A stretch of DNA of 64,000 bases. Origin: an uncultured virus (IMG/VR IMGVR_UViG_3300017593_000095). Taxonomy: Duplodnaviria > Heunggongvirae > Uroviricota > Caudoviricetes. The stretch is from the IMG/VR virus record IMGVR_UViG_3300017593_000095, one strand, 5' to 3'. A program made the translations under genes and the position numbers. Shown one piece after another: positions 1,822 through 62,910 of this stretch (the stretch's first letter is position 1; each line of letters opens with the position of its first letter). The notes below the pieces were generated by a model. The model was not told the origin of the DNA. It saw only the letters and a program-made list of their open reading frames with translations, and searched no databases.

Positions 1822-2520
1822 ATGACTTGTAAGTTTTCCTTCGAAGTTCCTTTGAAAAGCCTTGAGCTTCAAGTTGAGTTTAGTGATTATATCTTCGCTA
1901 TAGCTCCTTGGTTTGAAAATGAGACTTACCGTAACTTCGTACACGAACACCGTTCTCAACTCCCTCTCTATCTGGACAACGGTGCTTATGAACAAGGAGC
2001 TTCTATTGACATTAAGAAGTACATAGAGCTCATCCAAACGTTACGCCCAGACGTAGTGGTTGCACCAGATGTGTATAGTGATAGTAAGGGTACCATTAAA
2101 CTCACTCGTCAGTTTTTCAAACACTCACTTCCTGCGGATACTAAAGTTATGATTGTACCTCAAGGACACAGCATCATCGAGTGGACACGGTGTTTACGTA
2201 TCCTTTATTCTGAGTTTGAGAACCGTTTTCATTTGGTTGGTATACCTCGAGTGATGTATCCTAACAGATTATTTCTGTCAGTTTATTCATTTAAGTTGAC
2301 TTCTAAACCAGTTCACATTTTAGGGTGTCCTGACCCTAGTGAGCTACCCGAAATTTTTGATTCGGGAGTACCTATTGAGTCATTGGATACTTCTTATCCA
2401 ACACGTAAAGCGTTAGGAAAGGTAGGTCTGGATGATCGGATCGATTTTTTTAATGATAGAGTTTCTTTTAAATCGATGCAGAAGGCAGTAGAAGAATTTT
2501 TTCAATTGATTCAAACTTGA
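1822..2520 (+). CDS. TGT/DpdA-like transglycosylase (7-deazaguanine insertion)
   Basis: TIM-barrel TGT motifs LDNG, APDV, VPQG, HILG, SLDTS; adjacent to queC. Confidence 0.7.
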   Translation: MTCKFSFEVPLKSLELQVEFSDYIFAIAPWFENETYRNFVHEHRSQLPLYLDNGAYEQGASIDIKKYIELIQTLRPDVVVAPDVYSDSKGTIKLTRQFFKHSLPADTKVMIVPQGHSIIEWTRCLRILYSEFENRFHLVGIPRVMYPNRLFLSVYSFKLTSKPVHILGCPDPSELPEIFDSGVPIESLDTSYPTRKALGKVGLDDRIDFFNDRVSFKSMQKAVEEFFQLIQT

Positions 2521-2549
2521 GCTCGTTTCCTTAGAAAGGAGGTTGTTAG

Positions 2550-3314
2550 ATGGAATGGACGATTTGTGAACGGCCTGCGGAAGTTTATGATATTGAACCA
2601 ACGCAAAGAAGTGCTGTTGTGTTATCTTCTGGCGGCCTTGATTCTTCGAGTTTAATCTCGATGTTACTCAACCTAGGTTGGGACCTTACTTTGATTCACT
2701 TTGATTATGGTTCTACTCATCATGAAGCTGAATATCACGCCTTCCTCCGGTTGGTTGAGCATTTTGGAATTGAGAAAGAGAGGGTTTATGTAGTTGATCT
2801 TTCGTCTCTGAAGCGATTGGTTTCTAAAGGAGTTGCGTTATTAGACGATCAAGTAGATGTACCAGAAGGGTACTATACCGAAGAAAGTATGCGTCAGACT
2901 GTAGTTCCTGGAAGGAATACGGTAATGATCTCCTACGGACTCGCCCTTGCGGAGTCCTTAGGGAAGAAGTTCGTTGCTATCGCAGCTCATGAAGGTGACC
3001 ATTTTATTTATCCTGATTGCAGAATTGACTACCTGAGGTATATGTCACAAACAATTTTTCTTGCTTCTGATAGGAAGGTAAAGTTATTAGCTCCTTTTGC
3101 CCATCTTGCGAAATGGGAAGTTGTTTCTGTCGGGAATAGATTTAATTGTCCGTTTGAGTTAACGTGGTCCTGTTATAAAGGGGAGCCACCAAAACATTGT
3201 GGCACCTGCGGTACTTGTGTTGAACGTGCTGAAGCTTTTCAGAAAGCAGGAGTTGAGGATCCTACTATCTACGATAAAGATCCTTGCTCTTTTCTTCGGA
3301 ACAAGGAGGATTGA
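2550..3314 (+). CDS. queC: 7-cyano-7-deazaguanine synthase
   Basis: SSGGLDS PP-loop, VPGRN, YPDCR, and SCY...CGTCGTC Zn site. Confidence 0.97.
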   Translation: MEWTICERPAEVYDIEPTQRSAVVLSSGGLDSSSLISMLLNLGWDLTLIHFDYGSTHHEAEYHAFLRLVEHFGIEKERVYVVDLSSLKRLVSKGVALLDDQVDVPEGYYTEESMRQTVVPGRNTVMISYGLALAESLGKKFVAIAAHEGDHFIYPDCRIDYLRYMSQTIFLASDRKVKLLAPFAHLAKWEVVSVGNRFNCPFELTWSCYKGEPPKHCGTCGTCVERAEAFQKAGVEDPTIYDKDPCSFLRNKED

Positions 3315-3316
3315 GG

Positions 3317-3478
3317 ATGATTGAGGTTCTTAAACTAAAGCGTAAGGACAAACCTTGTGAGGTACCCGGTATGTTCGATTCTGTGTTAACGTTAGTTGTT
3401 AAGGGAAGTCGTTTTGAGGTATTGTGTTTAGAGAGAGCGATTTTTAAAGCACTACAAAAGTTAACCAAGAAGGTTTAA
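3317..3478 (+). CDS. Small hypothetical protein
   Basis: ATG downstream of an AAGGAGG RBS; tightly packed in the operon. Confidence 0.5.
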   Translation: MIEVLKLKRKDKPCEVPGMFDSVLTLVVKGSRFEVLCLERAIFKALQKLTKKV

Positions 3479-3497
3479 TTTTACCTAGGAGGCTCCC

Positions 3498-3764
3498 ATG
3501 CAAATTACAGTTTGTGATGTTTGCGGTACGCAAAAGGACGTGCAACGAGTTAGTTTTTCATATGACCGCCGTGCCGATGCTGCTGGATCCGTGGAGGATG
3601 TATATGAAACTTTTGATTTGTGTTGTAAATGTTACCTGAAAGCTTTGAAAGCCGCCGTTAAGGAGGAGATCAGAAGGAAGCACCTTAACGAGTACTTGTT
3701 CAATAAGAATTTGATTGAGATCATTAGGATTCGACAGGAAACTTCAGCTAAGAAATGGGAATAG
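3498..3764 (+). CDS. Small Zn-finger protein
   Basis: CDVC...CCKC; AGGAGG RBS. Confidence 0.7.
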   Translation: MQITVCDVCGTQKDVQRVSFSYDRRADAAGSVEDVYETFDLCCKCYLKALKAAVKEEIRRKHLNEYLFNKNLIEIIRIRQETSAKKWE

Positions 3765-3773
3765 GAGGTACAC

Positions 3774-3995
3774 ATGGCATTATTGGAGAATGTTCGTCAT
3801 CCTAAACACTACACTCGTGGTAAGATTGAGGTAATTGATTTTATTGAAGATCAAGGATTTGATTTCCTTGAGGGGAATGTAGTAAAATATCTTGCTAGGT
3901 ATAAATGGAAAGGTGCTCCTTTAGAGGACCTAAAAAAGGCAGAGTTCTACCTTGAGCGCTTGATTAAGCGGGAAGAAGCGCGTCGTAGAGGTTGA
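3774..3995 (+). CDS. DUF3310-family protein
   Basis: 'VRHPKHYT.GKIEVIDFI...GNVVKYLARYKWKG...EDLKKAEFYL' is the family signature. Confidence 0.9.
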   Translation: MALLENVRHPKHYTRGKIEVIDFIEDQGFDFLEGNVVKYLARYKWKGAPLEDLKKAEFYLERLIKREEARRRG

Positions 3996-4015
3996 TCCTC
4001 CTCCTTTCCCCGGCC

Positions 4016-53563: not shown

Positions 53564-53783
53564 TGCTTGGAAGTGCTCAAGTTGTGGGGCCGTCCTAGGT
53601 TACCTGGATGGTACAGACATCTTGCGTATCAAGTATAAGGACTTATACTTTTACGTAAATGTTATAAGAGGAGCTTCGTTGATAAAGTGTTTGTGTCGTA
53701 AGTGTGGTAAAGTTAATGAAGTTATGGCGAAAGCGATGAAGATGAGTGAACCTGCTGTGATCGAACTGGAGAAGTACTTGTAG
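53547..53783 (+). CDS. Com-like Zn-ribbon protein
   Basis: WKCSSCGAVLG...LCRKCGKVNEV. Confidence 0.6.
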   Translation: MSNQSSAWKCSSCGAVLGYLDGTDILRIKYKDLYFYVNVIRGASLIKCLCRKCGKVNEVMAKAMKMSEPAVIELEKYL

Positions 53784-53834
53784 TGAGTTAGGTTGTTGAG
53801 GTACACACTTAATTTGAGGAGGTGAGAATTGTAA

Positions 53835-55572
53835 ATGAACACACCAACTTATAACACCAAAAGATTGAGTTTCGGGCCTAAGTGACACTGGGCCCGTAAA
53901 ACCTCTGCTGATCAACGGGGAAACACAATGGTATCCACTCAGCTAAATGAGATTTTAGATGGATTAATTTTCAGTGATGGGCATATTGCTTATTGTAAGG
54001 CTGGTGACTATAGGTTCGAGTTGGGGACGACCAAGCGTTTGTACGCAGAGCAAGTTTGTAACCTTCTTCGTCCTGTTATTTCCTGTTCTATTAGAGAACA
54101 AGTACGTATTGGATTTGGGAAGAAATTTATCTCTTACAGAGTTGTTGGATATAAAGCTCCTGTTATGAAGAATCTTCACTATCGTTGGTATGATGATAAA
54201 AAGAAAAAGCTTCCCAAAGATTTTAGATGGACGCCTACTACTTTGAACGTTGCTTATTGTGGTGATGGTACTGTTATTGAGAATAGCCCGACTATGTGCT
54301 TAAATAGTTGGGCGGTTCCCGAGGTGAAAGAGATAGTTAGGTGCTTTGAAGAGTTGGGCTTGTATGGGACGGTTGTCCAAACCCCAACAGGACCGATTTT
54401 TAGGTTACATCAAGATTGTGCCCTAGATTTCTTCGAGTACATAGGAGACCCACTAATTCCGTTTCACTCTTATAAGTGGATTACCGTTGTCAACCCCCAG
54501 CAAGCAGTTCGCGCGACTCTGTGGGACGATGACCTAGCTCAAAAGGTTGCGAGGTGTATTAAGAAGATTATGATTTTACGCGTTTGGGGAGGTTCGAAGG
54601 AACGGCGGTACTTGTCGTACTTTCCTGAGTTAGTCGTAATGGTTAATGATAAAGACGTTAAAGATGCCCTTCAGAGAATCAGAACTTCAAGGAAGAAAGG
54701 TGAGGTTGTAGTTAGAGGTCGACAAGCGAAACGTGTTTTAGAAAGGGTCCATTTGTTTCTTCCGGACGATAAACGAATGTTAGCTACAATTGCGTTAGCT
54801 TTGCCTCTTGGGCGGAGGAAGAAAGATTTGAAGGAAGTTCTATATCAGTTTTTCTGGACGAAATTTAATGAATTAAATCCGCCCGAGAGAAGACGGGGAC
54901 CCAAAAGAGAGTTGAATAGCGAACTGCGGCTGCAGAGACTGAGCGTAGAGGACACTAACCTCTTTCAGGATCTGGTTAGTGTATACGACAGTCCGACCCC
55001 TACGGTGACGTAGGGAAGTAGTTGTACTACTTGCCCGAAAGGGTCAAGAAAAATAACAGGTTAAAGCGGGTGTGCTTTATATTGGAAGCGCCGGCCAAAC
55101 ACCTACTATTGATATAGGCGCTGTTAAGACTGGAGCAACTCTAACATTTACTCGAGATAAACTCGAGGTTAAACAGGGTTCTCCCGAGAAGTTGATCAAA
55201 CAGTGGGTTGTTACTGAGACAGTTAAACTAGATGTTGTTGGTCATGAATGGAATCTTGAGAATTTGAGGTATGCTATTGGTTGTGGTATCATTCAAACTT
55301 CGGGAAATGAGAAGACGATGGATTTCGGCGGAGATATGGAAGTTACTGAAGCGTCGCTGAAGTTCGTTCACCAGATGCCTGCTGGAGGAACTGTGGAAAT
55401 TGATATTTGGAGAGCTCAGTCCGCAGGAGAACTCTCGATCGAGTTTGGGAACGATCCACACGAATTCCCTTACTCGTTCGTTGCTCTGGATGCCGATACT
55501 GCTTGGGATGGCACTACCTTGGATGAGAGGGGAAGGTTGTGCCGAATTAGGTTAATCGGTGACTTCTCCTAA
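53835..55572 (+). CDS. Major tail (tube) protein, spliced: join(53835..53879,55069..55572), 182 aa
   Basis: GAGGAGG RBS; exon 1 MNTPTYNTKRLSFGP joins in frame to GVLYIGSAGQ...; followed by chaperones and tape measure. Confidence 0.85.
53880..55068 (+). ncRNA. Self-splicing group I intron (1189 nt)
   Basis: P1 GGGCCU/GGGCCC with U.G at the 5' splice site; P3 CCUCUGC/GUAGAGG; P6a GCAGUUCGC/GCGAACUGC; P7 GACUG/CAGUC; P8, P9; terminal G; P10 ACACU/GGUGU. Confidence 0.93.
53928..55013 (+). CDS. Intron-encoded LAGLIDADG homing endonuclease
   Basis: ILDGLIFSDG and LNVAYCGDG motifs, 'LHYRWYDDKKKKLP'; C-terminal part looks like a second degenerate domain. Confidence 0.88.
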   Translation: MVSTQLNEILDGLIFSDGHIAYCKAGDYRFELGTTKRLYAEQVCNLLRPVISCSIREQVRIGFGKKFISYRVVGYKAPVMKNLHYRWYDDKKKKLPKDFRWTPTTLNVAYCGDGTVIENSPTMCLNSWAVPEVKEIVRCFEELGLYGTVVQTPTGPIFRLHQDCALDFFEYIGDPLIPFHSYKWITVVNPQQAVRATLWDDDLAQKVARCIKKIMILRVWGGSKERRYLSYFPELVVMVNDKDVKDALQRIRTSRKKGEVVVRGRQAKRVLERVHLFLPDDKRMLATIALALPLGRRKKDLKEVLYQFFWTKFNELNPPERRRGPKRELNSELRLQRLSVEDTNLFQDLVSVYDSPTPTVT

Positions 55573-55625: not shown

Positions 55626-56024
55626 ATGAAAGCTTTTGAAGAGTACATTGAAGGAGCTCGTGAAGTTACCTTAAGCAATGGGAACACGGTTGAGATTCCT
55701 CCGCTTACTTGGGGGAAGGAACTTAGGCTCTACAACATTCTAACTAAGGTCTTTTCTAAGCTTTCCGTTAGTACTGATGCAGAAGGCAATCCTCAGTTCG
55801 ATGAGTCCCAAGTCTACGCGTTCATGACCGCCTTTGCTAATGACGTGTCTGAGATTGCATCGATTATTTTCAACAAAGACAAGAAGTGGGTTGAAAATAA
55901 TCTGACCTCAAAGGATATGGTAGAGTTTATCGTCCCTTTGTCGCTTCACATTTTCGGAAAGCTAAATCTCGGACTAACCAACGCGGTAACGAAGTTGGCA
56001 GAAGAGGCGGGGGAGACCCCATAG
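55626..56024 (+). CDS. Tail assembly chaperone
   Basis: Position between the tail tube and tape measure genes. Confidence 0.75.
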   Translation: MKAFEEYIEGAREVTLSNGNTVEIPPLTWGKELRLYNILTKVFSKLSVSTDAEGNPQFDESQVYAFMTAFANDVSEIASIIFNKDKKWVENNLTSKDMVEFIVPLSLHIFGKLNLGLTNAVTKLAEEAGETP

Positions 56025-56287
56025 AGAAGACCATAGCGCAGGTAGTCGACTTCTTGTGCTCTCAGTATGGATGGACTCCTGACCAGGTTTTCGCCTTGAC
56101 AAGGCCCACGATTGAGGGTTTACTAGAAGAAGCGAGAGAACGACTCCACGCTCAGTATCGTTTCTATGCTTCTCTAGTAGGCGCAGAACTTCGTGATGAT
56201 TACGTTCGGCCAGATAGTGATGATCCACGTACCTTGTTGAAGAAAGTGCGAGATATTGGAGTCGATTTTGAGGTGGTTGGTGGGTAA
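56009..56287 (+). CDS. Tail assembly chaperone, -1 frameshift extension
   Basis: Open -1 frame 'GGDPIEK...SQYGWTPDQVFALT'; G GGG GAG near the end of the upstream ORF. Confidence 0.6.
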   Translation, partial: GGDPIEKTIAQVVDFLCSQYGWTPDQVFALTRPTIEGLLEEARERLHAQYRFYASLVGAELRDDYVRPDSDDPRTLLKKVRDIGVDFEVVGG

Positions 56288-56292
56288 AGAAT

Positions 56293-59200
56293 ATGGCCGA
56301 AGAGTATATAGTAGAAATAGGTGTTGAGAATAAGGAGGAGTTAGAAAAACTCCGTACCCAAGTCGCGAAAACCGCTGAGTCTGTCCAAACCCTTTCTGAA
56401 ACTGTACGTAAGCTCGCTGAAAGTCAACGACAATTAGTTGAGTCGATTCGTAATACCGCCCGGAGTACCCAAGCTTCTGTTAAGTCCACCCAAAGTGCTT
56501 CGAAGGCCACTTCACAGTACGCCTCCTCTGTTCTCACGTTAAGGACTGCGTTTATTGCTATTGCCTCTGCAGCTGGGTTGGTAACTGCAGCGATTAACTC
56601 TAAAAAGATCTCGATGAGCTTAGCGAATAAGTTGTACGTACTTTATACGCGCTCAGCCCAAAGCGCTGCTCGAGCAGTCACCTCATTTGCAGTACAGCAT
56701 CGCTTCCTTGGTACCGTTTTGACGCAAACCGTTCATATACTTTCCACTACAACTTCTGCTTGGATTACTTGGGCAAAAGGATCAATCCCTGCTACTGCCG
56801 CAATGAAACAGTCTTTAAATTCTGTGCGAGATGCGCTCAGAGTGTTGTTCACCGAGTTTCGCAGGGGACCTTTTACTTGGATAGCTTCTCAGTTTACGCA
56901 CGTTGCAGAAGTTGGTAAGTCTGCGTTCGTTTCTATTGCTGTTTATGCTGTAAGGGCAGCTACTAGGTTAGTTGAGTTCTTGACTCCTGCTGTTGCTACG
57001 GTAACGCGCTTGTTTTTGAAGTTGAGCGATTCTCTTACTCCAGTAAGGGAAGCTCTTTCTCGTCTGTTTGTTAGACTGAGAATTCCAGACGCCTTTACTA
57101 AGCTAACCGAAGTTTTTACCAGGCTTAAAGTGATAATCGTTGATGTCGCGGATGTTATCTCTACTAAGTTTGTGTCTGGACTTCGTGTCGTAGCCGACCT
57201 CTGGAAAGGCTTACTCCGACTTGCTTATTCCCTACGTGATCGTGTAGCCCAGATCGGGAGTGTGGTGAAGTCTAAGTTAGCCGGCAAGATAGGACTGACC
57301 GCTAGTTTTGCGTTTTTAGGTACTGTATTGGATAAGGTGCGAGACAAGATCTTGCAGCTCGGGGCTCGTATTAACGAATCCCTAGGTGGTGAGGCCGTTT
57401 CTATAGGCGCGAAGTTATCTAAACCTTTTGTGGCGATGATGGGGAGTTTGACCATTCTTTCCGGGAAACTGTTGCGTTTCTTTCCCTTGACTAAGAAGTT
57501 AGGCTCTACACTAACTACGTTGGGGTACTCCCTCGCTTCTGTGTCCTCGTTTTCGCGGTCGTGGTCTATGGTAATGTCCCATTTGGATAAGACATTACCT
57601 GGAGTCAACGACCGATTACGCAGAGTTACTCGCGGTTTCTCAGAGTTGACCGGTAAGATTAACATACAAACGGCCGCGCTTCCTAGATTGATCAAGGCAC
57701 TTGGGGAAGTCACCTTTCACTACCTTATGATATTCAAGTTTAATGTTAGTCTAGCTCACGGATTCGAGCTCTTGGGTGAGAAGCTCTCTTACTTTGGTGA
57801 AGCCATGCTCGAGCACTTCTCCGAATCGTATAGAGTCAGTTCTGAGATGATTCGCACGCAGGTTGATTTGAACCGAGCGGTTCGGAGGTATGCTGAGTTG
57901 ACCGGCGATGCTTCTATGAGTGCAAAAGATTGGCTCCAGTGGTCCGACAGACTTGCTCTTTCTGCAGGTAAAAACGTTTCAGAGATGCGCCGGGTTACCG
58001 GTGCTCTGTTGGATTTTGCGGCTTTGTATAAGTTGAACCAAAAGGAGACGAAGCGATTCATTTCTTTGATGACAGACGTTTCGAGTTTCTTGGGCAAAGA
58101 TGTGTTCGAGACCTTGCAACATGTCCACGGTGCGTTGGCTGGGTTAACTAATTCAGCCATGATTTTGGGCATTAACATAGACCACCTCAGAGAGAAGACT
58201 AAGTTTTACGAAGAACAACTCCGGAAAGAAGGCACCGAAACTGGAAAGTCCGTCAAACAAAAAGCGAGGATGCTCGCTCTTATACAGGAGTTGAGTTACT
58301 TACAGGGTGTTAACAATAGGTTGATGGAAACAGGGTATGGTATTCTGAGACGTTATCGCGTTTCTCAAGAACTTCTCGCGGCCCAAACTGGAAATTATGT
58401 AACTCCTATTTTGAATGCTTATTACAAAATTTTGACCCGAATTAACGAGGTCATGGCTCAGCCCGGGATTGGAGGTTTTATCACTACGATGAAGGCCGCT
58501 GGTGCCGCCTCACTTGATTTGCTAGGACGTTTTGTAAAACTCGGAGCGCAGTTGTTTGTATTGATTGAGACTGTACATTTAGTTGAAAAGGCGTTAACAG
58601 CACTAAACGCAGCCTTTGACGTCTTTGGGATGACTCAGAGAACAGCTCTTGCTCCTCTATTCGTGATGAGAGATGGTATGGTCAAAACTAGTTTTACTGC
58701 CTCGTCACTAAGCAAAGTTCTCAAGAGGTTAAGCGTTTACATTGGTACTACCTTTGTAAACTTCTTCAAAAACGGTGCCAAGGCTGTTAAAGGCCTTGTT
58801 GTAGAGTTAAGAACTGCGATCTCCACATTAATGGCGACTAAAGTTCCCAAGGCCATTTTTGGCCCAGCTCTAGCATCTGCTATGGTTCCAGAAAGGGGTG
58901 TGATTAGGAAAGCTCTGGCTGCTAGTAAGTTGATGCAAGCGACTTTTATGGCCGAAGGGTTGGTGCTGGCGAAGAAGGTAACTCCTATGGTACAGAAGCA
59001 CGCTAAACAGGTTCGAGATTTGTACTTAATTACTCATGACGTCGCCGGAGCTCAACGGGAGTGGGCTAATACCATAATTACGTTTACTGGGGCGGCCGGG
59101 GGTTTGTCTAAAGTATGGTACACTTTCTTAGGTGTCGTTACAAAAGTTAAAGGTGCCGTGTTAAAACTCATTAACATATTCAAAGGCTTTGCCAAGATTT

Positions 59201-62200
59201 TTGGGATTATTTTGATCGTCATTCCCGCGGTGTATAAAGCCTTCAAAGAAGCGCTTATCCCGGCTTTTAAGGAAACTTTTGGGGAGTCCGAAACTTTTCG
59301 GGCCGCGGTTTCTGCACTAGGGAAAGTTTTGGGTTGGTTAGGAAAAATCATTGTACAGATTGTTACTGGCCCCGTTAAGCTGTTTGCGACGGGAATCGCT
59401 GGGACTGCAGGTGTTATTTCGTATGCACTGGGATTGATTATTAAGTACAGGGGCGTTCTTCTCCGCTTAACAGGACCTTTCTATTTACTCGGGAAGTCCG
59501 TCTTTAATGTGGGGAAGTGGTTCGGTATTTGGGGTAAGTCTGTTGACTCCTTGAACAAGAAACTTGACAGTGCTGGCGAGACTTTGATCAAGTTTGGAGA
59601 ACGGTCTGCAGATAATGCTCGAGCTATAATTGGGCTGAACAAGGTACTACAGACTAACATCGATCGTACTGCGCGGTTGCGAAAGGAACTTGCTGAAGGA
59701 ATGAAGAGACGACAAGAGGAACTGGGACTGAACCTTTCGTCTGCTAAGTCGTTGGAGCGAGTTGTTAACGCTATTCAGGAGTATCGAGATGCCTACCAAG
59801 AGTTCCTCGAAGTTCAAGATGAGATTGAGAAAGGTAGGACGACTGAGGGTAAGCAGTTAGAAGATGCAGAGGCTTTACATAGGAGAAGTACCGAAGCGGT
59901 TCAGGAGCTTTCGAAGGCGCGTTCCGCTCTTGCAGAGAATTTGAAGAAGCAGTTTGAAATTACAGGAGCCCAGATTAAGGAAACTAAAACGTTGGTAAGT
60001 TTGTACTCAAAGTACACTAAAGCTATTGGCGACGTTTCGACTGGACAAGTAGTTACTCTCAAAACTGGGCAAGCTATTTCACGGATTTGGCAAGGCTTAA
60101 ATCAGATTACACAGGGAAACTTAAGTGGGATTAAGACAACCGCAGAAGCGTACAACTCGTTAGCAGGTATACTTCGTGATATGGCCTCTAAAGCTAGCCC
60201 TTCACTACGGGCCGCGTTGGTAGCAGAAGCTAAGTCTTATGAGAAGCAAGCTGGTATACTAACTAAGGTAATGGAGAGGACCAAAGGGAAGGTCAAAATT
60301 GATGAAAAATTAATCGAGACTTCCTTCAAAGTCTCCGCTGCCCAACGTGCTGTGAATGACGAATTACAAAGGCACCAAGCAATTTTGACTTACTTACATA
60401 AATCGATTTCCGATACAACTGAGGGACTGGGTCAGTTCGCGAATGTGTATTCTAAAGATGTAACAGTCTCGGCCGAAACTGCCGCCCGTGTACAGCTCGC
60501 TTTAGCGAAGATCTCCGAAGTAGGTGCTCGTCGCTACGAAGAAGCTATCAATGGTAATATAGACTCTCTTAAAGTGTACCGGAACTATCTTGAAACAATT
60601 CAGAAGTCCCAGAACGACGAATTTGCCACTCTTGTTAAGGACGCAAAGGGGAGACAGCTCCTGAATGCTTACTTGGAAGCACAGATTCGAACCGTTGATA
60701 ACTTGATAAAGTCTTATGAGAGTGAGTCTCAAGTTCATGTAACTTTATCGGCTCGTATAAAAGCACGACTCGCTACTTTGAAGGCGCAGAATAAGGTAAC
60801 AACGGAAACTCTGAAGCTTCGGAAACTTCTACTTGACCTTTGGAAGTCTGAGTTTAACCTCCATTCTCGGTTAAACGCCCTTACGTTACAGGGGTTGACT
60901 ACAAGAGAAAAGAGAGCCCAAGCAGAACAGTATCTTAGCGAGGCTTTACAACAAAGTATCGAGCAGTATAGCAGAGCAGGACTTTCTCTCAAAGCCTTTG
61001 ATGATTACGAGAAAGGGGCTATTTCAACTACTACAGCCGTTAGACAGGCTCTGGTGCAATTACAAGGTCGTACCGACTTGTTAAGTAGGGCTATTAAGGA
61101 AACCCTCTTAGAAGCTCTGTCTCGTGCTACATCTCAACAGCGTGAGTATGCGGCTATGACGATCCAAAGTGCGAGGCGGATTAAAGAACTCGAGAAAGTA
61201 ATTCACCCTGTTTATACTACTTTTGGGAATTACTCGAATCTGATCGCTGATTTGGTTAATCGTTCTCGTGACCTAGCAAAGCAGACAGGGATTTCGGCCC
61301 TCGCCTTTGATTCCTCTACGGTTACTGTGAGTGAACTGGCTTCTTATCTCGCCCTTTTAAGCGCACATCAAGTTGATTACAACAATGTTTCAAAAGAGAC
61401 CGCTCAAGAAGTTACCTCTCTAGTTGAGAAGTTACTCGAGCTGACCAGAGTTGATGTCCCCCAATGGGGGTCAAGCTTAGCTAATGTATTTGAGAGCTTA
61501 CAAGGGAAGACTAAGGATTTCATTTCAGCGAATGATTACCTCAAACCCGCTCTCCTGAACGCTATCTTTGGATTTAGGGGGTTGGTTGACAGAGTCCGTG
61601 AGCTTGATGCTAACCTCGCTCCTGTTATACAAAGCGTGTTAGACAGCGCTTCGGCGATGTATGAAGCTAAGAGTTCTTCTTCGGCTTATAGTGAGGGGTT
61701 GAGTAAAATCACGAGTTTGGAAGAGCAAGTACGTACCGCCCTTAGTAGCGTACTCCCTCATTTAAACGCGCAAGTTCAGGCTTTAGCTAAAGGGAAAGTG
61801 CAAACTGCTGACATGATCGCGAAGACTCAAGATTATGCTAGGATCGTTTCAATACTGGTTTCCCAGTTAAACACATTGACTGATGCTGAGGAACGTTTGC
61901 GAGAAAGCCGCCGTAAGAATTTGGAGTTGAGTTCCTCTTTGGTATTTTCCACTCAGCAACTTCATGAGAATGTGTCCGAGCTCGCTAACATTGCTGTACA
62001 AGATCTGATTCAACAGTACCGACGAGCGGGTGTGGTACTGAGTGAATCGCAGAAACAAGCACTGGAGGACATAACAAGGACTATTACAGGTTACACAGAG
62101 TTAACTGAGTTGGCTCGTAGACGAGTTGATACTTTTACGAAGTTCGTGGACGCTAAGCTGGCCGAACAAACACGCGCTTGGTCGCGCAATAAGGATGAAG

Positions 62201-62910
62201 TTGAAGCTTTTGCTAATGGCTTGAGGACTATTGGCGAGAGTGCAATGCAAGGAATCTTGAAGAACTATGCTGAGATTGGGGCGAAGATCGAGGAAATGGG
62301 CGGGTTCTTTGGCGCCCTCGGACAAATGACTCAAGAGGCTGTTGCGAGGACCGCTGCGAGCGCGTTTGATGAGTTGAACAGGGCAATAATTGATTCTATA
62401 GTATACGGAAAGCGATTTCAGATGAACTGGCAGGAAATTTTGAGAAGCTTTACGGCAGGTCTTGCTCAGGCAATGCTACAGTTGTTAGAATTTAAACTAG
62501 CTATGATGGCGCTGCAGGCGATGGGAATTCGAGTTCCTATGATGAGACGTGGGGGTTTGGTTCCTTTAAGGAGGCAGGCCGGCGGCCCGGTACCTGGGCA
62601 AGGACGTGGAGATAGCGTCCCCGCTTTACTAGAACCAGGAGAATATGTTGTTCCAAGGCCTGTGGTAGAAAAAATAGGAGTTTCGTTCTTTGACGCGCTA
62701 CGTAAAGGTGTTGTACCTCCGACGATAACACCTTTTCATTACCAAGCGGGAGGCTTGGTTACGCCGATGCAACAACAAACGCAGGAACCGAAGGTAACGG
62801 TTGTGACTATTTTCGATGAGAAGGAGCTTAATAAGTATTATAGCTCTCCCACTTATGGCAGGGTTGTTGCGAACAATGTAGGTGAGAGAATCGCGAGGAG
62901 GACTAGCTAA
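56293..62910 (+). CDS. Tape measure protein (2205 aa)
   Basis: Long Ala/Leu-rich helical protein; C-terminal 'AGGPVPG.GRGDSVPALLEPGEYVV'. Confidence 0.92.
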   Translation: MAEEYIVEIGVENKEELEKLRTQVAKTAESVQTLSETVRKLAESQRQLVESIRNTARSTQASVKSTQSASKATSQYASSVLTLRTAFIAIASAAGLVTAAINSKKISMSLANKLYVLYTRSAQSAARAVTSFAVQHRFLGTVLTQTVHILSTTTSAWITWAKGSIPATAAMKQSLNSVRDALRVLFTEFRRGPFTWIASQFTHVAEVGKSAFVSIAVYAVRAATRLVEFLTPAVATVTRLFLKLSDSLTPVREALSRLFVRLRIPDAFTKLTEVFTRLKVIIVDVADVISTKFVSGLRVVADLWKGLLRLAYSLRDRVAQIGSVVKSKLAGKIGLTASFAFLGTVLDKVRDKILQLGARINESLGGEAVSIGAKLSKPFVAMMGSLTILSGKLLRFFPLTKKLGSTLTTLGYSLASVSSFSRSWSMVMSHLDKTLPGVNDRLRRVTRGFSELTGKINIQTAALPRLIKALGEVTFHYLMIFKFNVSLAHGFELLGEKLSYFGEAMLEHFSESYRVSSEMIRTQVDLNRAVRRYAELTGDASMSAKDWLQWSDRLALSAGKNVSEMRRVTGALLDFAALYKLNQKETKRFISLMTDVSSFLGKDVFETLQHVHGALAGLTNSAMILGINIDHLREKTKFYEEQLRKEGTETGKSVKQKARMLALIQELSYLQGVNNRLMETGYGILRRYRVSQELLAAQTGNYVTPILNAYYKILTRINEVMAQPGIGGFITTMKAAGAASLDLLGRFVKLGAQLFVLIETVHLVEKALTALNAAFDVFGMTQRTALAPLFVMRDGMVKTSFTASSLSKVLKRLSVYIGTTFVNFFKNGAKAVKGLVVELRTAISTLMATKVPKAIFGPALASAMVPERGVIRKALAASKLMQATFMAEGLVLAKKVTPMVQKHAKQVRDLYLITHDVAGAQREWANTIITFTGAAGGLSKVWYTFLGVVTKVKGAVLKLINIFKGFAKIFGIILIVIPAVYKAFKEALIPAFKETFGESETFRAAVSALGKVLGWLGKIIVQIVTGPVKLFATGIAGTAGVISYALGLIIKYRGVLLRLTGPFYLLGKSVFNVGKWFGIWGKSVDSLNKKLDSAGETLIKFGERSADNARAIIGLNKVLQTNIDRTARLRKELAEGMKRRQEELGLNLSSAKSLERVVNAIQEYRDAYQEFLEVQDEIEKGRTTEGKQLEDAEALHRRSTEAVQELSKARSALAENLKKQFEITGAQIKETKTLVSLYSKYTKAIGDVSTGQVVTLKTGQAISRIWQGLNQITQGNLSGIKTTAEAYNSLAGILRDMASKASPSLRAALVAEAKSYEKQAGILTKVMERTKGKVKIDEKLIETSFKVSAAQRAVNDELQRHQAILTYLHKSISDTTEGLGQFANVYSKDVTVSAETAARVQLALAKISEVGARRYEEAINGNIDSLKVYRNYLETIQKSQNDEFATLVKDAKGRQLLNAYLEAQIRTVDNLIKSYESESQVHVTLSARIKARLATLKAQNKVTTETLKLRKLLLDLWKSEFNLHSRLNALTLQGLTTREKRAQAEQYLSEALQQSIEQYSRAGLSLKAFDDYEKGAISTTTAVRQALVQLQGRTDLLSRAIKETLLEALSRATSQQREYAAMTIQSARRIKELEKVIHPVYTTFGNYSNLIADLVNRSRDLAKQTGISALAFDSSTVTVSELASYLALLSAHQVDYNNVSKETAQEVTSLVEKLLELTRVDVPQWGSSLANVFESLQGKTKDFISANDYLKPALLNAIFGFRGLVDRVRELDANLAPVIQSVLDSASAMYEAKSSSSAYSEGLSKITSLEEQVRTALSSVLPHLNAQVQALAKGKVQTADMIAKTQDYARIVSILVSQLNTLTDAEERLRESRRKNLELSSSLVFSTQQLHENVSELANIAVQDLIQQYRRAGVVLSESQKQALEDITRTITGYTELTELARRRVDTFTKFVDAKLAEQTRAWSRNKDEVEAFANGLRTIGESAMQGILKNYAEIGAKIEEMGGFFGALGQMTQEAVARTAASAFDELNRAIIDSIVYGKRFQMNWQEILRSFTAGLAQAMLQLLEFKLAMMALQAMGIRVPMMRRGGLVPLRRQAGGPVPGQGRGDSVPALLEPGEYVVPRPVVEKIGVSFFDALRKGVVPPTITPFHYQAGGLVTPMQQQTQEPKVTVVTIFDEKELNKYYSSPTYGRVVANNVGERIARRTS

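Follow-up and report, generated by a model that had tools for sequence, protein, structure and literature searches.

Background

Several phages are known to carry group I introns in genes for virion structural proteins. In the parts of the published accounts available to us, three such introns interrupt orf142 of Staphylococcus phage Twort, a gene later recognised as encoding the tail tube, and exon skipping has been reported there (Landthaler & Shub 1999, PMC22036, as cited in PMC11878797); among the cluster J mycobacteriophages, introns lie in the capsid gene of LittleE and in minor tail genes in BAKA and Optimus, with splicing shown by reverse transcription polymerase chain reaction (PMC3706429), and the capsid gene of lactococcal phage Tuc2009 also holds an intron (as cited in PMC3706429). 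In this study, we analysed a 64,000-nt stretch of DNA from an uncultured Caudoviricetes phage from vent samples (IMG/VR record IMGVR_UViG_3300017593_000095; the whole stretch is called the window below), and propose that its tail-tube gene is very likely a single gene that a mobile group I intron interrupts after codon 15 and that is spliced in the manner set out below. An initial annotation of the window, made from the letters alone, had proposed this intron and remarked that most described phage group I introns sit in DNA-metabolism genes; the remark agrees with the portion of PMC11878797 available to us, but the structural-gene introns listed above, including those of a tail-tube gene, had already been described.

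A putative tail-tube gene split by a 1189-nt insert

The putative tail-tube gene occupies 53835-55572 and is cut after codon 15 by an insert of 1189 nt. Its parts are as follows.

53816-53825, + strand: strong Shine-Dalgarno site GAGGAGGTGA, upstream of ATG 53835 and serving exon 1
53835-53879, + strand: exon 1 of the putative tail-tube gene, MNTPTYNTKRLSFGP, 15 codons, last base U53879
53880-55068, + strand: predicted group I intron of 1189 nt, its last base G55068 being the omega G
55069-55572, + strand: exon 2 of the putative tail-tube gene, GVLYIGSAGQTP..., stop codon TAA at 55570-72

From ATG 53835 the uninterrupted frame is just 16 codons long (MNTPTYNTKRLSFGPK), with an in-frame TGA at 53883-85, and the frame of exon 2 picks up at GGT 55069 (GGT GTG CTT TAT, reading GVLY and on to GVLYIG...). 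The program-made list of open reading frames (ORFs) shows instead a 361-amino-acid (aa) ORF at 53928-55013 and a 166-aa ORF started by GTG at 55072-55572; exon 1 is missing from it, as the initial annotation had pointed out. The alignment of the 166-aa ORF to phrog_2175 begins only at profile position 25, which suggests that its N-terminus is missing. Shine-Dalgarno sites similar to that of exon 1 precede the ATG in the homologous loci L001, L007 and L020, and none comparable to it was found upstream of GTG 55072.

Intronless homologs read SFGPGVLY straight through in seven DNA loci (L001, L007, L008 and L015-L018, the last four being metagenome loci) and in two proteins, P0003 and P0005, both of 182 aa, which begin MNTPTYTTKRLSFGPGVLYIG... 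and MNVPEYSTKRLSFGPGVLYLG..., respectively; the continuous FGPGVLY expected of such homologs is present. No interruption of this reading occurs in 58 aligned homologs either. With a slash marking the insertion point, the site reads TTTGGTCCT/GGAGTT in L001 and TTCGGCCCT/GGTGTG in L007 and L008 (TTCGGCCCT/GGTGTGTTA in L007), whereas the window has TTCGGGCCT, 1189 nt and then GGTGTG. Excision of 53880-55068 gives the reading of the intronless homologs, SFGP/GVLYIG, as had been claimed. Comparison with the intronless alleles leaves the boundary ambiguous by 1 nt (CCT/...G/GGT or CC/T.../GGGT, with identical protein), and only the boundary chosen in the initial annotation gives both U at position -1 and G as the last intron base; that base, G55068, is indeed present. 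The insert shows 0 mismatches across five IMG/VR loci from four contigs, and it also occurs on contigs of sequencing runs X1 and X4, both of which are flagged as possibly the window's own source.

A library-wide search returned 210 homologs of the tail protein. The N-terminus is conserved in an alignment of 58 of these, with the consensus start MN.P.Y..KRLSFGPG, and among only three invariant columns two, N2 and G14, are encoded by exon 1, so that a protein started at GTG 55072 would miss conserved parts; of the 150 relatives listed, most full-length ones have alignments that begin at query residue 1 or 2. The sequence comparisons therefore give good support to a real start of the tail-tube gene 1.2 kb upstream of its obvious reading frame. 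For annotation this means that public gene calls would mis-start the tail-tube protein of this phage and its relatives (166, 157 or 156 aa, beginning after the intron), dropping the two invariant N-terminal residues, and that the Rfam group I model does not flag the cause.

Predicted fold of the intron RNA

The initial annotation had stated that P3, P5, P6, P7, P8, P9 and P10 can be drawn. All of these could be placed, together with P4, and the resulting model consists of the following elements.

53874-53895, + strand: P1, exon GGGCCU plus A53880 with U53889 plus GGGCCC, 7 of 7 pairs, U53879·G53890 at the splice site
53885-53889, + strand: P10 guide strand ACACU, pairing with exon-2 GGUGU at 55069-55073, 5 of 5 pairs
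53902-53908, + strand: P3 5' strand CCUCUGC, partner GUAGAGG at 54945-54951, 7 of 7 pairs
53917-53920, + strand: P4 5' strand GGGG, partner CCCC at 54494-54497, followed by the A-rich J4/5 (AAA)
53925-53939, + strand: P5 5' strand, partner 54475-54490, 15 pairs with one bulge, containing AUG 53928-30
53940-54474, + strand: insertion in L5, 535 nt, encoding the LAGLIDADG core domain
54498-54520, + strand: P6 5' strand, partner 54908-54932, 4+9+7 pairs
54521-54907, + strand: insertion in L6, 387 nt, coding for the ORF's C-terminal domain
54926-55037, + strand: 3' core (J6/7, P7, P3', P8, P9, P9.1), from the R1 model match and a pair check
54935-54941 and 54989-94, + strand: P7, G54935, bulged A54936 and GACUG 54937-41 with CAGUCC, 6 pairs
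54952-60 and 54974-82, + strand: P8, 9 bp
54998-55004 and 55009-15, + strand: P9, GUGA loop
55017-22 and 55026-31, + strand: P9.1, 6 pairs
55033-55044, + strand: P9.2 hairpin GCCC GAAA GGGU, 4 of 4 pairs

Standard pairs make up 100% of every modelled helix (P1 7, P10 5, P3 7, P4 4, P5 15, P6 20, P7 6, P8 9, P9 7, P9.1 6 and P9.2 4). The pairing claimed for the end of exon 1, between U53879 and G53890, is there within GGGCCU (53874-79) and GGGCCC (53890-95); P1 and P10 are contiguous, so that one 11-nt guide spans both exon ends. P7, G(A)GACUG with CAGUCC, is the classical helix with a bulged A that the R and S elements form; 3 nt separate it from P3', P3' directly adjoins P8, there is no P2, and P9 and P9.2 are capped by GNRA loops. 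The structural hallmarks of group I introns were accordingly found together: a P1 with a U·G wobble, an omega G with P10, a P3-P7 pseudoknot with P8 and a bulged P7, and a P4-P6 domain with an A-rich J4/5.

An unconstrained minimum-free-energy fold of 53909-54934 yields P4, P5 and P6 unprompted. The P4-P5 duplex reaches -28.7 kcal/mol, compared with -13.3 +/- 3.0 in dinucleotide shuffles, and the P6 duplex -30.1 kcal/mol, compared with -17.0 +/- 3.4, none of 1000 shuffles reaching the observed value in either case; the partners of P4-P5 and P6 are also the best anywhere in the intron. P3 taken alone was reached by 15 of 1000 shuffles.

Relationship to a large family of introns

Relatives were collected with a pattern of the R and S elements, GCAGAGACTGAG...GACAGTCC; it matched 57 loci of viral origin and 15 on genome contigs. 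As a marker of group I introns this pattern was rejected, being not validated by Rfam (2 of 20 loci at E<0.01), and several of its matches on genome contigs, such as L090, L092-L096 and L098-L100, look like chance matches in coding DNA. A stricter pattern with end filters left 41 rows, L100 being removed by hand, and a covariance model, R1, was built from 41 non-redundant 3' cores on other contigs, with the window, its copies, L020, L023 and L097 excluded. RNAalifold recovered P7, P8 and P9.1 from these 41 cores, and two-sided changes were seen at 12 of the 19 pairs. R1 gave a single match to the window, at 54926-55037 (53.8 bits, E 2.2e-12), and no further match in the whole assembly; it also matches L020, L023, L026 and L027.

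A model with the P3/P4/P6/P7/P8 pseudoknot was then scored over 17 compact relatives, where 95.9% of cells are paired compared with 31-45% when the partners are slid, and 18 of 29 pairs show two-sided changes; 0 of 500 shuffles reach any of these measures. By helix, family covariation covers 6 of 7 pairs in P3 and 5 of 5 in P8, while P7 shows no variation, having itself been part of what the search pattern selected for. Comparison of the window with the intron of L020 and L023 adds 13 two-sided changes (two in P3, six in the 9-bp segment of P6, three in P9 and two in P9.1) and no broken pair. The L020 intron lies 5 nt further downstream (...CCAGGAGU/), and its guide is re-matched there, with an 8-bp P1 ending in U·G; the counterpart of L5 in L020 and L023 is a 4-nt loop, AUCC UUUU GGAU. 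In a phage collection searched at the nucleotide level, neither an 8-kb segment surrounding the gene nor the 3' core had a match. Taken together, structure, covariation and homology to a large intron family support the assignment of the insert as a putative group I intron.

Three side observations concern this family and its surroundings. An L020-like intron core (L097) lies on a contig binned as the metagenome-assembled genome (MAG) of an 'uncultured archaeon'; a family member in a Candidatus Woesebacteria MAG (L086) is identical to the IMG/VR locus L030; and L050 holds, at 2242-2452, a different, unrelated group I intron found by Rfam with 81.9 bits.

Identity of the interrupted gene

The identification of the interrupted gene as a tail-tube (major tail) gene is supported by its predicted fold and by gene order. 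An AlphaFold model of the homolog P0003, made from the 58-sequence alignment, has a predicted local distance difference test (pLDDT) score of 94.3, superseding an earlier prediction from a 6-sequence alignment (pLDDT 34.8), and in Foldseek its best matches are tail-tube proteins, led by 9n71_A (E 1e-8, template modelling (TM) score 0.72) and followed by siphophage tubes, lambda gpV and SPP1. Sequence profiles matched phrog_2175 in 30 of the 58 homologs and phrog_117, 'major tail protein', in three; a search for Pfam families in the tail protein found no match, and a sequence search of the PDB returned nothing at E<=1.

The upstream neighbour is a tail-completion or neck gene (phrog_5). Downstream, 55626-56287 holds a tail assembly chaperone ORF of 132 aa (phrog_1442) together with a 77-aa ORF, a possible frameshift partner, and 56293-62910 a 2205-aa ORF of tape-measure size.

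Further introns in the same gene family

Searches with the tail protein led to 23 loci, among which nine are uninterrupted, five are as in the window and seven have other introns; L024 and L025 were counted as uninterrupted by tblastn coverage only, L021 ends at a contig edge and L028 was left out. Two intron lineages, one associated with LAGLIDADG ORFs and here called A-type, the other with HNH ORFs and called B-type, occupy five insertion sites within 75 codons. The A-type intron at +5 nt is present in L020 and L023. In L026 and L027 an A-type intron lies before EWNLDNL, at about codon 74, with a LAGLIDADG ORF of more than 300 aa that reads through R and S; this intron ends just 6 nt past P7 (..GACAGTCCAATAG/) and was found by R1 with 42.7 and 42.5 bits, respectively (regions L026 1-915 and L027 1-125).

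B-type introns, with the core ..GCAGAGACUUYC.. and ..GAUAGUCC.., were found in the following regions, and the copy after codon 27 bears the HNH ORF.

L019, 1-1000: B-type intron region
L009, 3299-3995: B-type intron region
L022, 3268-3990: B-type intron region
L023, 2231-2880: B-type intron region

L019 has an extra ORF-less B-type copy after codon 11, and the mini-exon between its two copies encodes exactly SFGPGVLYIGSAGQTP. A 16-codon in-frame deletion of conserved residues, as seen in L009, was considered as the general state of this allele and rejected, since the mini-exon of L019 encodes those 16 residues; L009 may have arisen by recombination between the two B-type introns, or its assembly may have collapsed.

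In three runs (X1, X4 and X5, from two studies) contigs diverge from the window at 53860 with one shared continuation and rejoin it at about 55105-08. The continuation, as we read it, differs from L009 at 1 of 30 bases and matches the B-type allele of L009 and L019, and thus an alternative intron allele exists in near-identical phages from the same kind of samples. Elsewhere, a 278-aa JGI gene call, P0009, has an exon-1-like start, LNVPSYDTSRISLGP, followed by an apparent ORF-less intron core and then a second partial L6 domain and core, a layout that suggests tandem introns in another relative.

The ORF within the intron

53928-55013, + strand: intron ORF, 361 aa, putative LAGLIDADG homing endonuclease by Pfam and phrog match

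The ORF matches Pfam PF03161 (LAGLIDADG_2) over residues 8-157 with 45.9 bits (cut-off 25) and phrog_11023 at 3.5e-20, and contains two LAGLIDADG motifs, LDGLIFSDG at residues 10-18 and LNVAYCGDG at residues 106-114, both with an acidic residue. Its AUG (53928-30) lies inside P5 and the LAGLIDADG core in L5; the frame then runs through P5', P4', P6, a second domain in L6, P6', P7, P3', P8 and P7', with its stop codon in P9. The homolog P0008 shares 46% identity with it across 99% of its length, which indicates that the whole frame is conserved as protein; P0008 and P0009 were sought in viral contigs and not found there. In a structure search of the Atlas, residues 199-320 resemble LAGLIDADG domains (TM up to 0.69), and we regard a LAGLIDADG-like domain in the C-terminal part as a lead only. 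The endonuclease presumably cuts intronless alleles near TTCGGNCCT/GGTGTG, which would drive homing, and a start codon within P5 would limit its translation from folded RNA.

The related A-type introns arrange the same parts differently. In L020 (region 2510-4010) the L6 domain comes first, a 465-aa ORF starting in L6, and the loop that contains the LAGLIDADG core is that of P9.2, where an 11-bp helix closes it. In L023 (region 1582-2216) the P9.2 hairpin is closed without an ORF, the LAGLIDADG core is cleanly gone and a 190-aa ORF is left. The L6-encoded domain is retained in every related A-type intron examined, L023 included. Endonuclease domains thus move among the P5, P6 and P9.2 loops and are sometimes cleanly lost.

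Source assembly

The window's contig belongs to assembly G000 (1.23 Mb, 239 contigs, 98.6% complete, 8.8% contaminated), and in the search of this assembly only window positions 1561-64000 map to contig C1, positions 1-1560 being N or off that contig. Contigs C73, C177 and C10 of the same assembly (L102-L105), which hold bacterial 23S and 16S rRNA genes, gave group I intron matches, one of 78.5 bits and the others of 24-49. The contig of the phage could come from a virus binned with this bacterium, whose genome is small, or it could be contamination.

Discussion

We infer splicing, its guanosine dependence and the activity of the endonuclease from the DNA, and propose the following course. Translation would begin at ATG 53835 behind the strong ribosome-binding site, and unspliced RNA would give just a 16-residue peptide. 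In the folded intron, the guide ACACUGGGCCC (53885-95) would hold the end of exon 1 in P1, with U53879·G53890, and the start of exon 2 in P10; a guanosine bound at the bulged-A P7 would attack after U53879, G55068 would then replace it, and the exons would be ligated as GGGCCU/GGUGUG. The spliced product would be a 182-aa protein starting MNTPTYNTKRLSFGPGVLYIG. It is a reasonable inference that tail assembly depends on this splicing, because exon 1 carries N2 and G14, which a protein started at GTG 55072 would lack.

Several observations weigh against this proposal. Rfam Intron_gpI (RF00028, curated gathering score 50 bits) gave 0 matches at that score over the whole window and none at E<=10 for the whole element within 53700-55300, and when the 3' half was offered by itself the match was partial and weak (14.0 bits, E 0.17); the Infernal check suggested with the initial annotation was therefore not passed. 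Yet the alignment of that 3' half places R, P3', P8, S and P9 as in the drawn model, and among 20 pattern loci of the family (L029-L050) the same search found no pattern site at the gathering score and missed 18 even at E<=1, with full-length matches in two relatives (L034, 31.5 bits, E 3.5e-4; L041, 29.3 bits, E 1.6e-3), so that the failure looks like a sensitivity limit of the model on this intron subclass and not like a failure of the structure. The P1 pairing was equalled by 213 of 1000 G+C-rich shuffles, which makes the shuffle test uninformative for this helix, and P4 has just 4 bp. A J3/4 of 8 nt and a missing P2 depart from the textbook group I core; the long J3/4 is common to all 17 compact relatives. 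Inserts of 535 and 387 nt and an ORF across the core could slow folding. Among the runs listed as holding the stretch none is an RNA run, the examined runs being DNA contigs. Lastly, in the part of PMC11878797 at hand, four of eight spliced introns of Bastillevirinae were spliced only in infected cells, and autocatalysis can therefore not be assumed here.

This last point also bears on an alternative in which the element is a true group I intron, spliced in vivo but in need of a protein helper, either the intron ORF acting as maturase or a host factor. LAGLIDADG maturases exist, and such a need would accord with the two long inserts, with the overlap of ORF and core, with the retention of the L6-encoded domain in all A-type introns examined, even in L023 where the LAGLIDADG core is gone, and with the infected-cell splicing in Bastillevirinae (PMC11878797, in part). 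However, the intron has a complete core in which P9 and P9.2 are capped by tetraloops, and compact ORF-less relatives have the same core; we consider such a requirement unlikely. Far less probable still is a dead relic or an unspliced endonuclease cassette, with the protein made from GTG 55072 without its first 16 residues and the 16-codon upstream ORF as a remnant. The ORF list and public gene calls do start at the GTG (P0001, 166 aa); but two invariant residues are retained in exon 1, its strong ribosome-binding site has no equal at GTG 55072, the pairs of the core are all intact and covarying, and most full-length relatives among those listed align from the very start of the query. That Rfam makes no call at its curated score might point to another kind of element (a group II intron, an intein or an insertion sequence) or to an assembly chimera, which we regard as extremely improbable: in-frame stops exclude an intein, there is no reverse transcriptase or transposase, no Pfam family other than LAGLIDADG_2 reaching its cut-off, and R and S elements, a bulged-A P7 and a P3/P7 pseudoknot are features of group I, while the identical 1189 nt in four IMG/VR contigs, and on contigs of X1 and X4 (possibly the window's own source), argue against a chimera. 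A mobile group I intron spliced from the tail-tube gene is thus the reading that we prefer.

As a speculation, which seems to us possible rather than probable, the first 75 codons of this gene family may form a contested homing hot spot with at least five insertion sites, contigs from the same vent samples representing near-identical phages with mutually exclusive intron sets. Co-infecting phages might then use their introns against one another, as weapons whose endonucleases each cut the allele of the other, and the A-type ORF, encoded together with the catalytic core and always with its third LAGLIDADG-like domain in L6, might double as maturase. If this were true, the same RNA segment would be under two constraints, one as ribozyme and one as protein. 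The gene family offers a compact natural series for the study of homing, intron competition and the overlap of coding with catalysis.

The window intron belongs, by its sequence, with uncharacterised compact introns of the form GCAGAGACUGAG...GACAGUCC (L029-L091), with which it shares the J1/3-P3-J3/4-P4 consensus UAAAAYCYCU.CUGAU.AAUGGGGAA, the R and S elements and the layout of P8, P9 and P9.1. It differs from these introns, which are mostly about 300 nt long and without an ORF, in its inserts of 535 and 387 nt and in a short P9.1 loop where the family has a CAGAAAUG loop. The Twort introns belong to subgroup IA2, have P7.1/P7.2 and carry an HNH endonuclease; the window intron contrasts with them in its 3 nt between P7 and P3', its P3' abutting P8, its lack of P2 and its LAGLIDADG enzyme. 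Our phage and its host are also unrelated to those of Twort; what is shared, as far as the accessible account of Twort goes, is a tail-tube gene family interrupted by several group I introns, with mini-exons here in L019 and L023.

As in cluster J, judging from the sections of that report at our disposal (PMC3706429), the intron sits in a virion structural gene of a siphophage, was found against intronless alleles, and has U at position -1 and G at its end; like that of LittleE it contains a LAGLIDADG-like ORF, which in LittleE lies on the opposite strand. The genes interrupted in cluster J are capsid and minor tail genes, unlike the tube gene here, and their introns are given as 'most likely group I', whereas for the predicted window intron the full core can be drawn and covaries. 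With the Bastillevirinae introns, as described in the accessible part of PMC11878797, it has in common the loop-encoded homing endonucleases, one of which is a phrog_11023 LAGLIDADG_2 enzyme, and the often partial Rfam matches, with core parts separated by a long loop. Those introns interrupt DNA polymerase, ribonucleotide reductase and terminase genes and not a structural gene, and the ORF of the window, unlike theirs, spans two loops and the core.

A limited search of the literature returned no earlier description of a siphophage major tail gene with a LAGLIDADG-bearing intron. Since phage structural-gene group I introns were already known, we regard the present case as a well-supported new example, adding one more ribozyme that would control the synthesis of a protein that is among the most abundant in the virion. 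What is unusual in this locus is an ORF that passes through the core as well as two loops, and a gene family in which two intron lineages use five insertion sites.

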